A program made the position numbers and the translations under genes. A stretch of DNA of 64,000 nucleotides from an uncultured Acidobacteriota bacterium (GTDB lineage: Bacteria > Acidobacteriota > Terriglobia > UBA7540), in NCBI GenBank assembly GCA_963804995.1, contig CAWDSK010000005.1:64001-128000 (forward strand), written 5' to 3'. Under the pieces are notes generated by a model that did not search any database, was not told the DNA's origin, and saw only the letters and a program-made list of their open reading frames with translations. Of this stretch, positions 13,550 through 64,000 are shown piece by piece. The number at the start of each line of letters is the position of its first letter. Position 1 is the stretch's first letter.

Positions 13550-13558
13550 GTTTGGGAC

Positions 13559-13810
13559 TCGAAACTCGAAACTGGAAATTCGAAACTCGGGGGACGTTGA
13601 AAGTGTGGTGCGCTACGCGAGTTTCGGTTTTCGAATTTCGAGTTTCGAAAAAGGGCGGGAGTAACTCAATGGTAGAGTCACAGCCTTCCAAGCTGTTGGT
13701 CGCGGGTTCGATTCCCGTCTCCCGCTCCAGTTCGAAATTCGAAAATGGAAACTCGAAACTCGAGGGCAGGACGGTTCAGTACGAATTTCGGTTTTCGAAT
13801 TTCGGTTTTC
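13559..13810. repeat. Inverted pairs of heptamer repeats (TCGAAAC-like) in the tRNA spacers
   Basis: gaaactcgaaactggaaattcgaaactcg is paired with cgagtttcggttttcgaatttcgagtttcga; a similar pair occupies 13731-13810. Confidence 0.8.
13655..13729 (+). tRNA. tRNA-Gly(TCC)
   Basis: Anticodon TCC, GGTTCGATTCC, 3' CCA. Confidence 0.96.
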
Positions 13811-13831
13811 GCGCGCCGCAGGGCGCGGCGG

Positions 13832-16531: not shown

Positions 16532-16681
16532 ATGCGCGAAATCATTACGCTACAGTGCGGCGATTGCAAGAACCGCAACTACTCGTCGACGAAGAACAAG
16601 AAGAAGAATCAGGACCGCCTGGAGATCAAGAAGTTCTGCCCCTCGTGCCGGCACCATACGGTCCATAAAGAAGTAAAGTAG
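16532..16681 (+). CDS. rpmG: 50S ribosomal protein L33 (Zn-ribbon form; absent from the ORF track)
   Basis: [49 protein letters not shown]. Confidence 0.96.
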
Positions 16682-16779
16682 GCAGTCGGCAGAAGGCAGT
16701 AGGCAGCAAAAGGACAACGACGGCAGGAGTTCAAGGATCGCTGCTTACTGCCTTCTGCTTACTGCCGACTGGTTTTCAC

Positions 16780-16855
16780 AGGGGCGTCAGATTAACGGCT
16801 AATCTGCCGGTCTCCAAAACCGGTCATGGGGGTTCAAATCCCTCCGCCCCTGCCA
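16780..16855 (+). tRNA. tRNA-Trp(CCA)
   Basis: Anticodon arm CCGGT-CTCCAAA-ACCGG, 3' CCA; conserved position before secE. Confidence 0.93.
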
Positions 16856-16976
16856 GAAGACAGAAGGCAGAAAGCAGAAGGCAGAGAGCAGAAGGCAAAA
16901 GGCAGGCCAGTGGCAGTGGTCCTGAGGCGCGGTGATGGCAGGTAAGGAGAGGTAAAGGGAAAGAAGAAGGTACCGC

Positions 16977-19105: not shown

Positions 19106-19204
19106 ATAAGGAAGAAGCAAGAAGTTAGGAGTCAGAAGTTAGAAGTCAGGAGAAAGGCAAATGCATTCTAGCTTCTAACTTCTAGCTTCTCCCAAGGAGT
19201 TTGC

Positions 19205-40387: not shown

Positions 40388-40652
40388 CAGAGAAGGCAGT
40401 AGGCAGTAAGCAGTAGGCAGTAAGTGAGGTTTGTCTGCCAGGTGTCGCGACGGACGGAGCCTGATGGACCTTGGGCAACCACTTCACGATGAGTTGGATG
40501 CGAGGGCAATTGGCCGCGAAGCCATATCGATAAAGAATTCAATCATGGCGGTTGAGAATCCCGCGCCGGAAGACCGCAGAACTATTGATGGGGGAATGTC
40601 GCTCGCTGCCTACTGCCTTCTGCTTACTGCCTACTGTCTTCCCTTTGCGGGG

Positions 40653-44344: not shown

Positions 44345-44507
44345 ATTAAGCTTTCAGCGTTTAGCTATCAGCTTTCAGCCCGGTTCGAAACTCGAAACTC
44401 GAAATTCGAAACTCGCAAAATCTGCCTGCCTCGACGGTGGCCTTTCATTCGCTCCTAACCTTTTTACCCTTCACCCTTCACCCTTCACTACTTCTGCCTA
44501 CTGCCTT

Positions 44508-52576: not shown

Positions 52577-52930
52577 GGGCACCTCCCGAAAGTGGGAATC
52601 GCGGGCATTCTACCACGTAGCGCAGGACGGTGAAGCCGCAACCAAAGACGTAGGGGCAGGCCTCACCGCCCACACTTTCCCGCTTCGGCTATCGGCAGTT
52701 TGAGGCGAGAAGATGAATCGATTTGCCGACTGCGAAAATCGCGAATCACCAATCGCAAATCGGCAATCATGCAATCACCCAATCGCCCGTTGAACCGATG
52801 ACCAGATTTCTCCCCCTCAAATTGACGCCCTCGAAAGCTGAGTGTAGACTGGCCTCTTCGCATTGAATTGCAGCGGCCTTCCCTGTCCGAAACAGGTGAA
52901 GGTGAATCTTGGGGAAATTACAGGAGGACT

Positions 52931-56737: not shown

Positions 56738-58345
56738 CTAGGGGCGATGGACGAGGGACAAGTTGTCGATAAACTCTTCTTCCGCCACCAGGTGCTCGCT
56801 GAATTCCCGCAGCGTCCGGTCTCCGATTGCGAGCAGCACCGTGGGATCGCCCGAAAGCTGGTAAGAAGCCATCTGCCTTTCGAACTTATCCAGGTCGATT
56901 CCCAGACGCTCGTGCGCGGTGTAGAAGGCTTGGACGGTTTCTGGGGTATCTGTAAAGGTTGGGAAAAGGGATTTCTCCTCCCGCCGGCAACTTTCCATCA
57001 CAAAGCTTTTGAAGAAATGCAGGGTCATGCGCAGCGCCGCGAGCACCGCCTGGCGTTCAATCGCATCCTCGCCGCGATGAAGGGTCAGCCCGGCGAGAAT
57101 CGCGTGCCAATCCTGCAATCCGGCGCGAATCTGCGCGTGCTCCTCCTTCCATTTCGACGCATCCGGCGCCAGCGTTTTGGCCCGAGGCTCACTTGCCGGG
57201 AGCGCCGTCTCGGGTCTGAGATATAGACTCTTGAGCCCGCGCGCGGCCAGCGCCTGCACCACTTCCCTCCGGCCGGGGAACCCGTGGGTTGAGAACTGGC
57301 CGGGCGTATCATGGTGCAGGTAGCCGCCCGGGAAGGTGTCACAATCCACCGTGAAGAGGTCTCCGGCCTCGACCATGGAGATGTTCATCTCGTAATTTTC
57401 GCGGGTATTAAAGAACAGGCGTGAGCCCGGGAAGGCGAGATGATAAAGGCTGAGGATCAGGCGGTAGTCGTCGTCGGATACCGTGAAGCGCGAGGATTTC
57501 TGCGACGCCAGGACGCCCCGCGCGGGCTTTAAGCGCGGAATGCCGATGGCGTGCGGGTCAAGACCGTAGGCGCGGCGCAGGTAGTTGCCGTGTTCGATGG
57601 TGGCCAGCGCGTTGTAGCGCCAATCGTAAAGCCCCAGCAGCGCCCCCAGCGCGATTTTCTCGATGCCTGCCCCGATGACGCGGTCCCACAAATCCAGGCG
57701 ATATTCGAAGTCCCGTTTAGGCGAGCCGGTCACGTGCCAGCGATCGAAGTGGGGCTGGTGGTAAGTCTCCTGCCACTCGACCACCCATTCGAGTCCGGCG
57801 GCGCGGAGGCGCACGTAGTCCTCGCGCTCATAAACCGGCGAGCAGAGCCCCACCACCCCGCCGCCCAGGCAATCGAGCTTCTGCCGCGTCAGCTCAACGT
57901 ACCGCGCCACCACGTCAGGGCCGAACTGGGGGTCTTCTGAGAGCACCAGCTCAATCTGCCGGTGGCCCCAGGAGAGAATCAGGTCGAGTTCGCGGCTGAA
58001 CTCGTCCAGGCTCAGGCGGACGCGCTCAGCCAGCGCATTGCTCTGGCGGTAGCCGCAGTAGAGGCACTCGTTTTCGCAGAAGCTGGTGAGATAAACGGGG
58101 ATGACGAATTCGACGGTATGCGGAGCCAGCCGTTCGCGAACCTGCCGCGCCGCCGCGTGGATTTCCGCGACCCGCTCGGGAGTGCGCGCCCAGGCAATCA
58201 GCGCCGCCGCGTCTTCCACATCCAGGCCGGGATTGGACTCCGCCGCTTCGAGAATCGCCGGCAGCGAACGCGTGGGTTCGGTGAGCGCCGCAAGTGACTC
58301 GATGCGAGCGTCAGAGACGCGGAAGACTTCACTGAATGTTGCCAC
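56738..58345 (-). CDS. ThiH/HydG-like radical SAM enzyme fused to a hemerythrin-like domain
   Basis: PVYLTSFCENECLYCGY, WQETY, LGALLGL, PRLKPA, TRE, PGGY...GQF; C-terminal EEH / REEKSLFP / AHE / EHLVAEE. Confidence 0.82.
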   Translation of the reverse strand: MATFSEVFRVSDARIESLAALTEPTRSLPAILEAAESNPGLDVEDAAALIAWARTPERVAEIHAAARQVRERLAPHTVEFVIPVYLTSFCENECLYCGYRQSNALAERVRLSLDEFSRELDLILSWGHRQIELVLSEDPQFGPDVVARYVELTRQKLDCLGGGVVGLCSPVYEREDYVRLRAAGLEWVVEWQETYHQPHFDRWHVTGSPKRDFEYRLDLWDRVIGAGIEKIALGALLGLYDWRYNALATIEHGNYLRRAYGLDPHAIGIPRLKPARGVLASQKSSRFTVSDDDYRLILSLYHLAFPGSRLFFNTRENYEMNISMVEAGDLFTVDCDTFPGGYLHHDTPGQFSTHGFPGRREVVQALAARGLKSLYLRPETALPASEPRAKTLAPDASKWKEEHAQIRAGLQDWHAILAGLTLHRGEDAIERQAVLAALRMTLHFFKSFVMESCRREEKSLFPTFTDTPETVQAFYTAHERLGIDLDKFERQMASYQLSGDPTVLLAIGDRTLREFSEHLVAEEEFIDNLSLVHRP

Positions 58346-58519
58346 GACGCTAAGACCTCCCGGTTCAGGGAAAAATCACAGACAATCGAGGGCCAAACAG
58401 ATACTCAGCAATCCCCACTCCATGATGAACCCGGAGGGGCAGGTTTGGGAATAGACAGAATGTCCGGTGGGTGCGAAATGGGCTTCCGGTCTTCGAAACC
58501 GCCAGGGGTTGCCAGTTTC

Positions 58520-59634
58520 CGCGTGCCGGATTTGGCCTCACGCTCGGATATCAACCTACCGATAACCGATGTGGGGGAGTGTGGCACAGCGGGGGAGGGC
58601 AATCGGGTGATTTGCGAATGCGATTTGTGATTGGTGATTTTTGCAGTCGGCCTTTGATTCATCTTTTTACTTGGCGCCACCGATAACCGATGTGGGGGAG
58701 TGTGGCACAGGGCGGATTGGTTCATTGATTCATCGGTTCATTGGTTCATTGATTCATTGGGCCGTCGGGTCATTTGCGATTTGTGATTGGTGATTGGGCG
58801 GTTGCCGATCCTCCGGCGTGCCGAATTGGGCTCATGTTCAGTGATAAACCTTCCGATAACCGTAGCGGGAGAGTGTGGCACAGCGCGGCGGGTTGGTCAG
58901 TGGTCAGTCGAATTTGCCCCATCCCTAGTCCCCAGCACCAAGTCCCTAACCCCTGCCTTTCCCGTGGCACTGCGCGGATGGGTTCATTGATTTATCGGGC
59001 CATTGAATCATTGATTGATCGGGCCATCGGTTCTTTGAATCATCGGATCATTGGGTCATTTAATGATTTGTGATTGGGCGGTCGCCGATTCTCTGGCGCG
59101 CCGAATTGCGCTCATGCTCGGACCTCAACCCACCGATAACCGATACGGGGGAGTGTGTCACGGCGGGGGTCGGGGGGTCGGTGGGCGAAGGGGGGCGAGC
59201 AAGCGTAGCGCGGACCTCCGCCGTTGAGGTCCGCGGTTCTTCGTATGCAATTTGAGCGAAGGTATCATGGCGAAGCAGCAGTCGCGCGACGGTTGGAGCT
59301 ACGTTTGCTATTCCCTCGTCAGCACCACCCCTTTTTCTTGTCAGCACCACCCCGTCGCTCAGCCCCGATGATCAATTTGGAAAGAACGCGCTATCGGGGC
59401 ACGGCGCGCCACCCCTCCTCATCTGAGGCGGGGAGTTCTTTAAAGCTCCCCTCCTGATTTAGGAGGGGTGGCGCTCCGAGCGCCGGGGTGGTTACGGGAG
59501 CACCTGGGGCAAAGGGATGGTAAATCCCTCCGCCGCGCCGCGTTACCCAATCTGCGCCACCTGCTACAGTCGGTTTTTGGCCTCATCTTCGGGCATCAAC
59601 CCACCGATAACCGATATGGGGGAGTGTCACGGCC
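58520..59634 (+). repeat. Five copies of a ~70-bp direct repeat (core CCGATAACCGatnnGGGgGAGTGT(gg/gt)CAC)
   Basis: CCGATAAC starts at 58559, 58680, 58853, 59133 and 59604. Confidence 0.92.
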
Positions 59635-59686
59635 GGGGAGAAGGGATTCGGGACTCGGGATTTGGGGCTGGGGGCGGACAGCAAGC

Positions 59687-59761
59687 GTAGCGGCGGGTTT
59701 ACCCCGCCATTTGGCGAGGTACACTCGCTAGCAGGAAATGGCGGGGTAAACCCGCCGCTAC
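59687..59761. repeat. GTAG-type REP doublet (GTAGCGGCGGGTTTACCCCGCCA)
   Basis: Inverted pair; further copies at 60671-60738 and 60-96. Confidence 0.85.
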
Positions 59762-59955
59762 GAAGCAACAACCCTCAGACGCGAAGCCGGCTCTGGGGCG
59801 CAGGGTGCTCGGCCCTACATGAACCACCGGCGCTTGCCGCTGGCGCATCGGGCAGGAGGAAAGCCCCCAGTCATGACGGGTTGTCCGCCATTAAGATAAG
59901 TTGACGTTCAGCCGCGGCGACACTGGGGTTATCCGCTTGCACCGACCTTATGGGG

Positions 59956-59984
59956 TTGACATGTGTAAGGTAACAGGCTACAGT
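59956..59984 (+). promoter_or_regulatory. higBA promoter, probably giving a leaderless mRNA
   Basis: TTGACA-N17-TACAGT, with the GTG start 7 nt downstream. Confidence 0.7.
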
Positions 59985-59991
59985 TGATCCG

Positions 59992-60282
59992 GTGAAAATA
60001 CGGAACTTCACCCACAAGGGCCTGAAAAGGCTCTACGAAGAAGACAGCTCCCAAGGGGTTTACCCCGACACGGTGGATAAGCTCCGTAAGATGCTGGCAT
60101 TTCTTGATGACATGCAAGACCCGGAGGAGTTGCGTTCGCTCTCGAGCTGGAAAGTTCACACGCTGACCGGCGACCGCAAGGGTACCTGGAGCCTGAGCGT
60201 CACCCGCAACCGGCGTTTGACGTTTTGCATCGACCGGGGGGAGCGCGAAATCTACGACCTGAATTTGGAAGACTATCACTAG
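59992..60282 (+). CDS. higB: HigB-family (RelE-like) toxin
   Basis: IRNFTHKGLKRLY, HTLTGDRKGTWSLSVTRNRRLTF, LEDYH. Confidence 0.93.
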   Translation: MKIRNFTHKGLKRLYEEDSSQGVYPDTVDKLRKMLAFLDDMQDPEELRSLSSWKVHTLTGDRKGTWSLSVTRNRRLTFCIDRGEREIYDLNLEDYH

Positions 60283-60301
60283 GACGGAGGAAGCAAACGC
60301 C

Positions 60302-60604
60302 ATGCCCATGAAGAACCCGCCCCATCCCGGAGATTTTATTCGGACGGAGATTATTGAGCCCGCGGGCCTGTCGGTGACCGCGGCAGCAGCGGCGCTGCAG
60401 ATTTCCCGGCCTACCCTGTCGAGCTTACTTAACGGCAAGGCCAGCCTTTCCGGAAACATGGCGCTGCGCGTTGAAAAAGCTTTTGGCGTGAAGATGGACA
60501 CGCTCCTGCGCATGCAAACCTCCTACGATATCGCCCAGACGCGCAAGCGCGAGAACCAGATCCATGTCCGGCGCATTCACCCGCTCGCCGAAATTTCCGC
60601 CTGA
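60302..60604 (+). CDS. higA: HigA-family antitoxin
   Basis: MKNPPHPG, MALRVEKAFG, MQTSYD. Confidence 0.93.
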   Translation: MPMKNPPHPGDFIRTEIIEPAGLSVTAAAAALQISRPTLSSLLNGKASLSGNMALRVEKAFGVKMDTLLRMQTSYDIAQTRKRENQIHVRRIHPLAEISA

Positions 60605-61033
60605 GCCTCGGCGGATAAGGTGGGGCTGGCGCGGTTTAAGGCAGTAAGCAGAAGGCAGTAGGCAGAAGTCGTAGCGGCGGGTTTACCCTGCCATTTTAGG
60701 CCACGCGATCGCGGGCAGGTTGGCGGGGTAAACCCGCCAAATTGCCCCCGGCAAAACTCCCCCCCTGATTTAGGAGGGGTGGCGCTCAGAGCGCCGGGGT
60801 GGTTATTCTCTTTAGCGCGTCCGCCGGAGGGCGAGCGGCGCTCGCCCTCAAATAACATAGGGCCGAATGGCATTCGGCCCAGGCCGAGCGCCGCTCGGCC
60901 CTACATGAACCACCGGCGCTTGCCGCTGGCGTTTCGGGCAGGAGAAAAGCCCACAGCCAGTCAAACCGCTGACTGGGGCCACCCGCTCCTTCAAGATTGA
61001 ACTTTTGGGGAACTCAGGGGGGCGCGCAAGCCT

Positions 61034-61309
61034 TTAGGGCCGGTCCTGAACGCCGTGATAAATCCGCAAGACTTCTATGCTCTGCTCCTTTACGCGATAG
61101 ACAGCGATGTAGGGCAGGGGAGGGAACAAAAGCTCCCGGGTTCCATCCTCACGTCCGAGCCGGCCACGATGCGGCCACTCCTTTAGGGATCGGATGGCGG
61201 CGTACATTTTACGCAGGGTCGGCTGCCGGTATTGTGGATGGTGGTCCTTCAGGTAATCGCTGATGTGCTGTAGGTCTGTCGCGGCGGCCGGGGTCCAGCG
61301 GATAAGCAT
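61034..61309 (-). CDS. ParE/RelE-family toxin
   Basis: IRWTPAAATDL, PHRGR, GTREL, PYIAVYRV, VLRIYHG. Confidence 0.9.
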   Translation of the reverse strand: MLIRWTPAAATDLQHISDYLKDHHPQYRQPTLRKMYAAIRSLKEWPHRGRLGREDGTRELLFPPLPYIAVYRVKEQSIEVLRIYHGVQDRP

Positions 61310-61311
61310 TC

Positions 61312-61536
61312 TTATGACCGCAGCATCTGCTCCAGGCGGGCGTCCATTTCCTCTTCCTCGATGAACTCGCCCCGGTCGGCCTGGGCAATACCCTGGCGCA
61401 CGGCGGCACGAAAGCGGGCTTCTTCCTCAAGGAGACGCACGGCGGCATCTTTCACCAACCGTTCGGCGTCGATGCCTTCCTGGGTGGCGATCTGCGCAAG
61501 CTGCGCTTCCTGCTCAGGGGTGAAATGTATTTCCAT
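61312..61536 (-). CDS. Cognate antitoxin (ParD/CopG-like)
   Basis: MEIHFTPEQEAQL...AVRQGIAQADRGEFIEEEEM; immediately upstream of the toxin. Confidence 0.85.
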   Translation of the reverse strand: MEIHFTPEQEAQLAQIATQEGIDAERLVKDAAVRLLEEEARFRAAVRQGIAQADRGEFIEEEEMDARLEQMLRS

Positions 61537-62065
61537 GACCCTCAGGATACGGGAAAACCCCACGTGTTGCAAGTTGCGCTGAGGTTCAGCGCGTTTAACT
61601 CGCCACTATCCACTATCTACTATCCACTGTTCTTCTGAGCTTCGCTTGCCGCTCGCGTATCGGTCAGGAGAAAAGCCTACTGTCAGGGCGGGTCGCCAGC
61701 CATTAAGATGGGCGGACTTTCAGCCGCGGCGACACTGTGGCCACCCACTCGAAAATCGAAACACATGGTTTGATTTCAGAGCATGGCAGAGGCTTTCCTC
61801 CGCAGCAGGGGGTAGCCACGGTCAACGTTCTAATGACCGTGGGCTTTTCTCATGCCCACTGCAATTGACCGCAAAATCCATCACCAAAGGAAGACCCATA
61901 GTCAGAACTGCACTGACTGTGGCTACCCGCCTGTGTAAAAGGGTACGATCGCAACCAAACTGAGCTGGGAAGTTCCAAAGCAACGCCGGGAGGTGTACAC
62001 TCAAGCCATTCGGGGTTCCGGCATGGAAATCAATACCCACCCCTGCGAACGTCGAGGACGAGAAT

Positions 62066-62662
62066 ATGAAAAAGTCGCTCACTTGGTTGATTAATACGGC
62101 GGTCGTCTACTTCATTTACTTGGGTTTACTCATTCCATTTTTGAACGAAGAACATTGGGCTATTGTGATCGTCGTCGGCGTTCCCTTCGCCATTTCGACG
62201 GCATATTTGTGGGAGCGTACTCGGCTAAGCGGAATTCTGCTTCGGACAGGTCTGCCCCATTGCGGGACAGTCGAAGCGGAGAAATTCCTTCTCAAAGACT
62301 CCAGCGGGAAAACACGAGCCGTCTTGGGCGTAACCGATTGTGGCCCAGGCCTTGATTTCTACGATACCAGCGGGGCACTGCGGGCATCGATGGGGCTGTT
62401 GAGGGAAATGCCAGGCTTTACGCTATCGGATAAAGAAGGGGCCTCGATGGTGCAGCTAACCGCTCTGGCAGATGGGCCCCATGTCGTGCTTTACGACGCA
62501 AACCATCAACTGAGAGCGGCGTTTGATGTGCTACCAAAAGGCCCGCGTTTGGAGCTATACGATCGTGAAGGTAACTCGCGAGGAAAGCTAACAGTGGTGG
62601 AGGGTGGAGCGCAATTTGGCTTGTTTGACGTCGAAGGGAAGGCGGTCTTTTCAGCACCTTGA
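62066..62662 (+). CDS. Membrane-anchored hypothetical protein with ~22-aa beta-repeats
   Basis: Two TM segments, then repeated GxxRAxLG...GPxLxLYD units. Confidence 0.75.
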   Translation: MKKSLTWLINTAVVYFIYLGLLIPFLNEEHWAIVIVVGVPFAISTAYLWERTRLSGILLRTGLPHCGTVEAEKFLLKDSSGKTRAVLGVTDCGPGLDFYDTSGALRASMGLLREMPGFTLSDKEGASMVQLTALADGPHVVLYDANHQLRAAFDVLPKGPRLELYDREGNSRGKLTVVEGGAQFGLFDVEGKAVFSAP

Positions 62663-62901
62663 CAGCCGTGCAGGGTGAAGACCGGCGGGCTGGCGCAGAC
62701 GGTCGGTTTTAACCGTCTGCGATCTCCTACAGGGACTGTCCTCTGGCACGGCATTGTCGCGGGTATAGTCTCCGGCAGTGTGCCGTTTTGCAAGCTGACC
62801 GAGTTGACCCGTCAGTTCCCACAACTCCCATCGGGAATCCGCACACCCCAGGAACAGGGATCTGCGCCAGGCACTGGGGGGAAAGCACAAGTATATAGAT
62901 C

Positions 62902-63873
62902 TCATTTCTCGCTTTCGCCAGCATGAGGGATCTTCGCAGCATCCTTTCCTGACGACGTTGACACATCACGGATTTTATACAGCCGCCGAAAGTCGAAGTG
63001 TTCGAGGATCGCTATCCGTGCCTCTTCGAAGAGGTCGGTGTCCGCGTTCGCCGCATGTATTGGCACGCTTAACTTTTCGTACCAGGACTTCAGTGAAGGC
63101 ATATGGTCGCGCTGTTTCTCTGGCAGCAGCGCTTGGTATGCGTCAAGGATTACCTCGCCTGTCTGCCTATCCTTGATTCCTGTTTGACGACGGCCAAATT
63201 GCTCGATAAACGTCCGCAAAAGGAACAAGCCAGCAAGGGTGTTCCCAGTTTGAGCGGCGACAATTGCCTCGCTAAACAGTCGCTTTTCGGTCTTCGGAAT
63301 ATAGTTTGGGACATCAACTTCTTCGAACGGCGAACGGCCAGCAATCGTCAGCTTCCAACCTCAACGTTCTATGAGAAAGGTAACAGGGGCCGATTTACAT
63401 GTCTCACACTGGTACGCCAGCACGAACATCTGAAAAAGGGGAGGAGGTAATGCGATGCGATGGTCACGACTATGACGCTCCATTATTCCGTCCGTTGCAT
63501 CCTTGTACCACGTCGGACTAAAGGTTTCACGCGTCTTGCAGGTCGAGCAATACAACTTGACGTTTTGCAAAATTAGTTCCAGGCGCAGGGCGGGTTTGGC
63601 CCCCGAACCGTTTGGTACCGTTGAGCTATCCTGCTCTGCGGGGGCGATTCGTTCTTCGCTTAGTTTCTTGGCAAATGTGTACAAAGCCTGCACGTGCGTC
63701 GTTAAAACAACGCTTTTCGAAACCTCGCTGAGAATCTCCGAAAAATCGACTGAGACAACATTCTGGTACAAGTGTCTCTCCTCAAGTAATAGCTTGAGTT
63801 GTCCTTTCATCGACTGGTTCACAGAACTCGCTAACAAGTATGTGGCCTCGGCATAATTGAGTGTAGCGACCAT
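62902..63873 (-). pseudogene. Zn-ribbon + DUF4145/HEPN-like gene with an in-frame TGA at 63361-63363
   Basis: The two track ORFs are in frame and joined by open codons (FLIER*GWKLTIAGRSPF...AGLFLLRTFIEQF); CSTC and CETC motifs. Confidence 0.7.
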
Positions 63874-64000
63874 CCTATTTCTCCCTAACCACGCATTAAC
63901 CGGGAGTATAACATTTTCCGTGTGGTGATACGCGCAGCGCGGACATGTTTTGCAGGTCCACGGCTCTCTGTTGCAGATTGGGGACAAACTCGTTTGGCCC

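Follow-up and report, generated by a model that had tools for sequence, protein, structure and literature searches.

The five short repeats in the window, that is, the whole stretch of 64,000 nucleotides analysed here, are one cluster of a small intergenic unit that has about 200 copies and is almost confined to one genus. We propose that the fixed part of this repeat is a promoter of the sigma28 family followed by a short G-rich leader, and that the repeat is probably a non-autonomous module which owes its spread to recombination with other repeats. From the sequence comparisons, the probability of this reading can be estimated to roughly 0.58. The evidence that carries it consists of the 209 copies found in the genome, their co-orientation and fixed 16-nt spacing, the empty locus in relatives, an orientation that faces gaps rich in repeats, mosaic units found in common at distant clusters, and fewer changes in the -35 and -10 elements than in their flanks.

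Results and Discussion

An exact search for TCAY-N16-WCCGATAA gives five matches in the window, all on the plus strand and starting at 58538, 58659, 58832, 59112 and 59583, and none in 100 shuffles of the window. The five copies of TCAT/TCAC-N16-(A/T)CCGATAA given in a preliminary description of this DNA are thus confirmed at their places, and the core-to-core distances of 121, 173, 280 and 471 bp are reproduced as start-to-start spacings. The array and its surroundings contain the following features, where the +1 positions are predicted from a promoter swap at RAYT loci and from the -10 placement in P. aeruginosa (see below).

52670-52716, minus strand: sixth copy, divergent and solitary, about 119 nt upstream of a TPR-protein gene
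56738-58345, minus strand: genus-conserved radical SAM-hemerythrin gene, behind the array
58517-58537, plus strand: left boundary (approximate) of the insertion specific to this lineage; native-flank similarity to relatives stops at about 58517-58520
58538-58587, plus strand: copy 1, with -35-like TCAC (58538-41), 16-nt spacer, -10-like ACCGATAA (58558-65), predicted +1 at 58573 and then the G-rich leader
58573-58693, plus strand: unit 1, 121 bp, running from the predicted +1 of copy 1 up to that of copy 2, with near-full-length matches in three other arrays at 77-80% identity
58659-58708, plus strand: copy 2, -10-like element at 58679-86, predicted +1 at 58694, left arm of the commonest family
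58716-58795, plus strand: 8-mer and 7-mer tracts of unit 2, of tract families common to other genome sites
58832-58881, plus strand: copy 3, -10-like element at 58852-59, predicted +1 at 58867
58981-59060, plus strand: 8-mer tract of unit 3
59112-59161, plus strand: copy 4, -10-like element at 59132-39, predicted +1 at 59147
59205-59242, plus strand: GTAG-type REP-like hairpin of unit 4, a separate family with 123 motif hits and an apparent group II intron target
59395-59485, strand not applicable: multicopy inverted repeat of unit 4
59583-59630, plus strand: copy 5, -10-like element at 59603-10, predicted +1 at 59618, leader minus one dinucleotide
59686-59762, strand not applicable: REPIN-like perfect inverted repeat of 27 bp, 3' of copy 5
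59956-59984, plus strand: sigma70-type promoter match, 7 nt upstream of higB
59992-60604, plus strand: higB-higA toxin-antitoxin pair, opening the variable region ahead of the array

The space between the copies is filled with 7-/8-mer tracts and REP-like hairpins, as had been claimed, and the G-rich leader reported for every copy is present overall, being one dinucleotide short in copy 5. The TGTG-G-CACA dyad does not hold as a family feature, since the genome-wide consensus is GTGTGTCAC and conservation drops past GTG. The five-copy array is real but not unique: a sixth copy is found in the window at 52716 on the minus strand, and the genome contains 209.

These 209 copies were obtained with a profile built from the five copies, rebuilt once and run on the 7.55-Mb genome at a cut-off of E<0.01; the reversed genome gives none. 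They form 84 clusters, and all of the 54 multi-copy clusters are co-oriented. The family consensus is TCAT-N16-RCCGATAACCGA-WRY-GGGGRAGTGTG. The fixed spacer length noted for the five copies extends to the family, with 16 nt in 193 of the 209 copies, 17 in three and 15 in two, TCA being absent in 11. CCGAT is conserved to 98-100%, the next A to 85% and the A after it to 93%, while the preceding base is G in 52% and A in 41% of the copies. None of the copies is located inside a gene, as called with a simple gene finder.

The strict pattern is present in 16 of 24 genomes of the genus and in none of 16 outside it, and in 300 further genomes of the phylum it was found in one, as a single match. 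Within the genus, the number of strict-pattern copies ranges from 0 to 132, in draft assemblies that lose repeats. A scan of species-representative genomes yielded 44 loci, every one titled Terriglobia or Acidobacteriota, and the viral contigs searched gave no match to the repeat. In three relatives, regular tandem arrays are found, with a period of 96-97 or about 175 bp and unrelated unit bodies. In relatives (L017:6996-10650 and L021), promoter arrays are broken a few bases 5' of TCAT by an IS and by short palindromic insertions with AAGGTGTGA-type ends; at L017, the first site overlaps the rsmB stop codon. In terms of replication, 42 of the 84 clusters are on the leading strand, 22 on the lagging strand and 20 unclear, a bias whose direction resembles that of genes.

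We now turn our attention to the placement of the repeat. The arrays face repeat-rich gaps and do not serve neighbouring genes. For 83 clusters, the next downstream gene is on the same strand in 39 cases and on the opposite strand in 44, and the nearer gene is behind the cluster instead of ahead of it in 68 (p=3e-9), with median distances of 272 bp behind and 1094 bp ahead. Multicopy DNA is denser ahead of the clusters than behind them, and the flanking genes include no constant neighbour. The array in the window is, as described earlier, oriented away from the radical SAM-hemerythrin gene and toward higBA. A functional link to higBA is unlikely, because higB has a sigma70-type site of its own (TTGACA-17-TACAGT) and the clusters have no bias to sense-oriented downstream genes.

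The higBA pair is bracketed by direct repeats (59807-59873 with 60893-60959, and 59442-59494 with 60753-60805), which suggests that it arrived as a repeat-flanked cassette; it is followed by a parE-type pair at 61034-61572. Upstream of the radical SAM gene, at 58408-58423 on the minus strand, there is a sigma54-like site of the consensus form TGG...TTGC. It is kept in most relatives in the genus, and insertions gather just outside it.

The fixed part of the repeat, TCAT-N16-RCCGATAA with the G-rich leader, matches a class of host promoters and is a likely start signal for a flagellar-type sigma factor. The published sigma28 consensus is TAAA/GCCGATAA (PMC8325347). The repeat has the -10 element GCCGATAA, and its -35 is TCAT at 16 nt (193 of 209 copies), compared to the textbook TAAA at about 15 nt; this equals the conserved host class. 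A FliA site with TCAA as the -35 is described in E. coli (PMC4183435).

The host class was counted in 4872 upstream regions outside the repeat. Before 143 sense DCCGATA sites, TCA/TAA occurs 13 times at 15 nt and 19 times at 16 nt, against 2-8 times at other spacings, and in the antisense control of 148 sites the corresponding numbers are 7 and 3. The genes with class sites include cheA, PAS-GGDEF, HDOD and propeller kinase genes. As to whether TCAY-N16 also precedes flagellin and chemotaxis genes, a check called for earlier, the sites of flagellin, flgM and cheA are spaced by 15 nt; the 16-nt spacing is found at the HDOD gene and the propeller kinase as well as at a DksA-like gene and a phosphorylase. 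At 24 HDOD loci of the genus (one partial locus of 25 was excluded), the promoter is TCA-N16 in 19, TTAT-N16 in three and N15 in one, and one is truncated. The HDOD sites are often preceded by GGCC and followed by GTT, and many repeat copies are alike in this respect. The comparison defines a conserved class of putative TCAT/TCAA-N16 promoters in this uncultured Acidobacteriota genus.

One clade of RAYT genes displays what appears to be a natural promoter swap in a leaderless transposase gene. Of the 30 loci fetched, 24 were examined; by eye, 7 of the 24, all in this clade, have TCAY-N16-GYCGATM 6-9 nt upstream of the ATG, and among 16 copies that are more distant, TATACT/TATAAT takes that spot in 15. 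The replacement of the sigma70-type -10 by the sigma28-type site before the leaderless ATG can be seen at L112:400-480 (G000:C2:467400-467480). In P. aeruginosa, GCCGATAA is located at -15 to -8 (PMC12784957). From these two pieces of information together, the +1 of the repeat is predicted to be the first G of GGGG.

The sigma28-family reading put forward in the preliminary description is therefore well supported by comparison, namely by the fixed 16-nt spacer, by host promoters of the same geometry and by the presence of the FliA family in the genome. It should be added that the leader and CCGA are likewise conserved, which exceeds what a bare promoter needs, and another protein may therefore read the site.

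The promoter motif is under constraint. For 94 copies that have two close neighbours, private changes amount to 3/278 in TCA and 3/463 in CCGAT, compared to 173/3835 in the arm and spacer; in the -35 and -10 elements, changes are 4-7 times rarer than in the flanks. The three bases before the +1 (58/201) and one base of the leader (16/69) vary freely. When the arms were located without using the motif, 37 of 41 and 13 of 13 of them led into an intact site, which means that the detection bias is small.

The genome encodes FliA at C2:295157-295978, whose presence had been proposed as a check, together with FlgM, flagellin and three FliA/WhiG paralogues. One of the paralogues, at C9:163190-164116 and with 38% identity to FliA, is genus-specific, as it is found in 22 of 24 genomes of the genus (4 as fragments) and in none of 16 outside. 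A divergent class site lies beside it at all 11 core loci, in the form of TCAA-N16 in 10 and TCAT-N15 in one. Because of this genus restriction and the site at every core locus, the paralogue is the better candidate, and there is moderate support for it being the relevant sigma factor rather than flagellar FliA; it would then be a second sigma28. Seven genomes of the genus have the paralogue but no strict repeat match, and one incomplete genome has repeats but no paralogue. As the HDOD gene is near flagellin, FliA may read both N15 and N16. In several genomes, a small protein with no Pfam match is encoded downstream of the paralogue (paralogue loci L004:730, minus strand, and L175-L184). The two further FliA paralogues are carried by helicase-bearing islands, and no consistent N16 site was found across the 8 island-borne loci.

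Another option considered was that the repeats act through an RNA product. The proposed CsrA-type or SD-decoy small RNA is unsupported, because no CsrA was found (the genome is 92% complete), GGAG occurs in just 105 of the 209 leaders and the copies share no conserved fold. A CsrB/RsmZ-type RNA is disfavoured on the same lines, with no CsrA match, no conserved hairpin for GGA motifs and no Rfam match. The Rfam and covariation checks that had been called for came out negative. No Rfam match at the gathering level was obtained, the 13 weak hits being mostly hairpin or miRNA models on other repeats, and four further loci gave no hits. Of nine pieces folded, only the one with the REPIN hairpin beat its shuffles, and 128 de-duplicated copies have no stacked helix according to the covariation analysis. 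An array of CRISPR-like or guide RNAs is not consistent with the 16-mer spacer, which is partly conserved and tracks the left arm, and is thus neither unique nor unlinked. Finally, short antisense ORFs starting from the ATG within TCAT were considered and rejected, as their lengths scatter (median 29 aa, 10th-90th percentile 11-96).

To assess the mobility of the repeat, we compared the radical SAM locus in 20 relatives, excluding two truncated loci and assigning classes by eye. The repeat is absent within 1.5 kb in all 20, and in 8 of them a DUF1015 gene directly adjoins. At the HpnJ loci, the repeat is present in 3 of 19 and the coupled operon is kept in 7 of 19. For 181 of the 209 copies, the nearest copy in sequence is in a different cluster, and unit 1 of the window array recurs in three distant arrays. 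The left arm and the spacer are co-inherited, and the linkage falls across the core; the left-right linkage is reduced but not abolished, since 60 pairs match on both sides compared to about 6 expected. The units join varied heads and tails via 7/8-mer tracts, a kind of tract known in other bacteria (PMC4679880), and their left edges are variable with no common end. Of the readings offered previously, the one that agrees best with the data is an amplified portion of an unknown mobile unit.

No inverted match of at least 7 nt, of the kind that terminal inverted repeats would give, was found between the left edge of the array and the region on its right. The search for a target duplication gave 7-8 nt matches, which is at chance level, with the right boundary of the array undefined. 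The analysis identified no mobilising enzyme for the repeat. One low-depth contig joint, in two DNA runs holding small shares, suggests a relative with the site behind the same gene, but is too weak to use.

The tracts near sites are single and co-oriented in 57 of 57 cases. Further heptamer tracts in the window are located at 13557-13811, 16677-16905, 19113-19190, 40394-40636 and 44349-44488, several of them as inverted pairs that resemble those beside four-helix-bundle genes elsewhere in the genome. A link of the repeat to these genes was rejected: at the 12 of 15 loci examined, none is within 10 kb of a site, and their tracts are inverted pairs. A group II intron family of 39 copies apparently inserts into the GTAG-type REP-like family (see G000:C2:580358-582301), of which 59205-59242 in the window is an empty copy. 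As a mobiliser of the present repeat the intron was dismissed, since it inserts into a different repeat.

The best reading of these comparisons is a promoter-headed non-autonomous module that would move between loci by recombination. In its first step, for which the support is good, RNA polymerase with a FliA-family sigma would bind the site and begin transcription at the first G of GGGG. The resulting RNAs would be variable read-through transcripts and not a single small RNA family. The conserved core and the 7/8-mer tracts might serve for the exchange of copies, which might frequently sit at the margin of a second repeat element, consisting of an AT-rich motif array and an ORF. One can speculate that copies which the polymerase is able to open are better donors or targets and that the promoter is kept intact for this reason; polymerase binding would then favour the copies of the module. 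The repeat is probably a self-spreading element making use of a regulator of its host, since the site points into repeat-rich DNA and not at genes.

A more far-reaching version, which we put forward only tentatively and do not expect to hold in full, is that a selfish promoter-headed module took over the genus-specific second sigma28. The promoters would act as transcription-primed landing pads, where the open complex and read-through lead to downstream capture and one-way reshuffling of REPs, toxin-antitoxin pairs, IS and other modules, and the repeat would hold most of the sites of that sigma in the genome.

Alternative Explanations

The site could instead be one end, facing inward, of a single defined mobile element, made up of the AT-rich array, the ORF and a palindromic promoter and moved whole by its own machinery, with arrays such as that in the window being eroded or amplified ends. 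We consider this unlikely. In 19 of 84 clusters, the AT-rich motif does indeed follow downstream in the same strand orientation, compared to one in each other arrangement, and 24 of 77 gaps with a site contain it, compared to 29 of 931 without; no other partner is linked to the repeat as strongly. Furthermore, the distance from a site to the start of an AT array is 145-489 bp for 21 of the 44 arrays, and at the radical SAM locus an AT-rich array is seen by eye at about the same spot in 9 of the 20 relatives. However, the other 23 AT arrays have no site nearby, and 6 of 10 copies of the ORF, which has no Pfam match, have none within 3 kb. The motif is absent up to 1.5 kb downstream in 65 of 84 clusters, including the window array, and neither motif of the element was found in 58300-64000. 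As most clusters are without the motif, the site is not simply the end of that element. The lack of a common terminus at the left edges and the unrelated unit bodies in the tandem arrays of the relatives also speak against this option.

The ORF has one marginal PHROG hit, and a terminase likeness proposed for it was not confirmed. Separately, a phage-like head-tail cluster is present at G000:C5:301000-333200 (L196, L197), with a large-terminase match that has an internal stop. Upstream of it there are four copies of the same palindrome that is found before the ORFs of the AT-rich element. The cluster runs up to DUF1015, which was ancestrally next to the radical SAM gene of the window.

Less probable still is that the host keeps the sites, either as a sink for sigma28 or to produce regulatory or antisense RNA across gaps rich in mobile DNA. 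The constraint on the motif positions, which is seen even on terminal branches, fits this idea, as does the ratio of about 6 to 1 between repeat sites and the 33 candidate host promoters. In E. coli, non-canonical FliA sites have been proposed to alter the FliA pool (PMC4183435). Against it, the copy number varies from 0 to 132 within the genus (with the loss of repeats in drafts), the positions are not conserved (0/20 at the radical SAM locus and 3/19 at HpnJ), and there is no antisense bias, no CsrA in the 92% complete genome and no conserved RNA fold. It is this instability of copy number and position that disfavours the sink.

It is very improbable that the units are retro-elements, in which an RNA that reads through the next promoter is reverse-transcribed and inserted at the +1 of another copy. 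The strict co-orientation, the left edges that resemble those of truncated units, and the 49 matches to reverse transcriptases found in this genome would all be compatible with such a scenario. However, a junction at the +1 predicts that the three bases preceding it follow the left arm, where 58/201 private differences are seen instead. Promoterless leaders are at background (6/86 compared to 4 in the control; 0/60), and the reverse transcriptase matches all belong to a few multicopy families, the main one of which inserts into a different repeat.

Finally, a recombinase or transposase binding site that merely resembles a promoter is hardly credible, because the same bipartite geometry is conserved upstream of host genes present in single copy and also occupies the leaderless-start position, with no dyad symmetry and no covarying stem, even if exchange apparently occurs in or near the conserved core and two transposon-end-like palindromes join close before CCGAT.

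Comparison with Known Systems

In its layout, the repeat is like the NIME arrays of Neisseria, and the presence of a promoter is a feature that it shares with REP2, IR-A and Correia elements, but it fails the defining tests of each. Similarly to FliA/WhiG (sigma28) promoters, it has the -10 RCCGATAA, a fixed distance to a T-C/A-A -35 and 7 nt to a purine start. It differs by having TCAT as the -35 and a 16-nt spacer, the E. coli sites examined having 15 (PMC4183435), and by its extra conserved leader and its about 200 copies within a repeat, not upstream of genes.

In NIME, which combines dRS3 and RS, a 20-bp inverted repeat separates many families of variable units of 50-200 bp, and recombination has been proposed as the driver (PMC1797815). 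The present repeat shares with this system a short conserved element between many variable unit families, arrays that collect other repeats and IS, and the restriction to a genus. Unlike the inverted repeat dRS3, its anchor is polar, promoter-like and non-palindromic, and its arrays are strictly directional and not syntenic at the loci compared, radical SAM and HpnJ. Neisseria REP2 and Borrelia IR-A are likewise dispersed intergenic repeats that carry a promoter and have no terminal inverted repeats (PMC3184786). The present repeat differs from them in that there is no RBS-ATG fusion, as seen from the strands and the median distance of the next gene, in not preceding genes, in lacking the two internal stem-loops, and in its alternative-sigma type and tandem stacks. 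Correia elements and promoter-carrying MITEs are also non-autonomous, with a promoter able to transcribe adjoining intergenic DNA (PMC3184786); here, no terminal inverted repeats or target duplication and no fixed length were found.

Like REP/REPIN/BIME with RAYT, the repeat is multicopy and intergenic, REP-like hairpins are interleaved with it, and one RAYT clade has the same promoter class. REP and REPIN sequences are GC-rich palindromes with a GTAG/CGTC end. In contrast, the present repeat is not palindromic and its orientation never alternates, the REP-like hairpins being separate passengers. In the literature covered, with most subscription papers outside its scope, we found no account of a repeat anchored on an alternative-sigma promoter, in polar stacks and facing gaps of mobile DNA.

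Conclusion

Bacterial repeats that carry promoters are already known. The present case is a real variant of such promoter-carrying mosaic repeats, with an alternative-sigma anchor, polar stacking and an orientation toward gaps of mobile DNA. If the sites are active, a single host regulator would turn on about 200 additional start sites, which could exceed its usual targets in number. The promoter class and the candidate second sigma28 of this uncultured genus can both be tested in vitro, with no need for culture.
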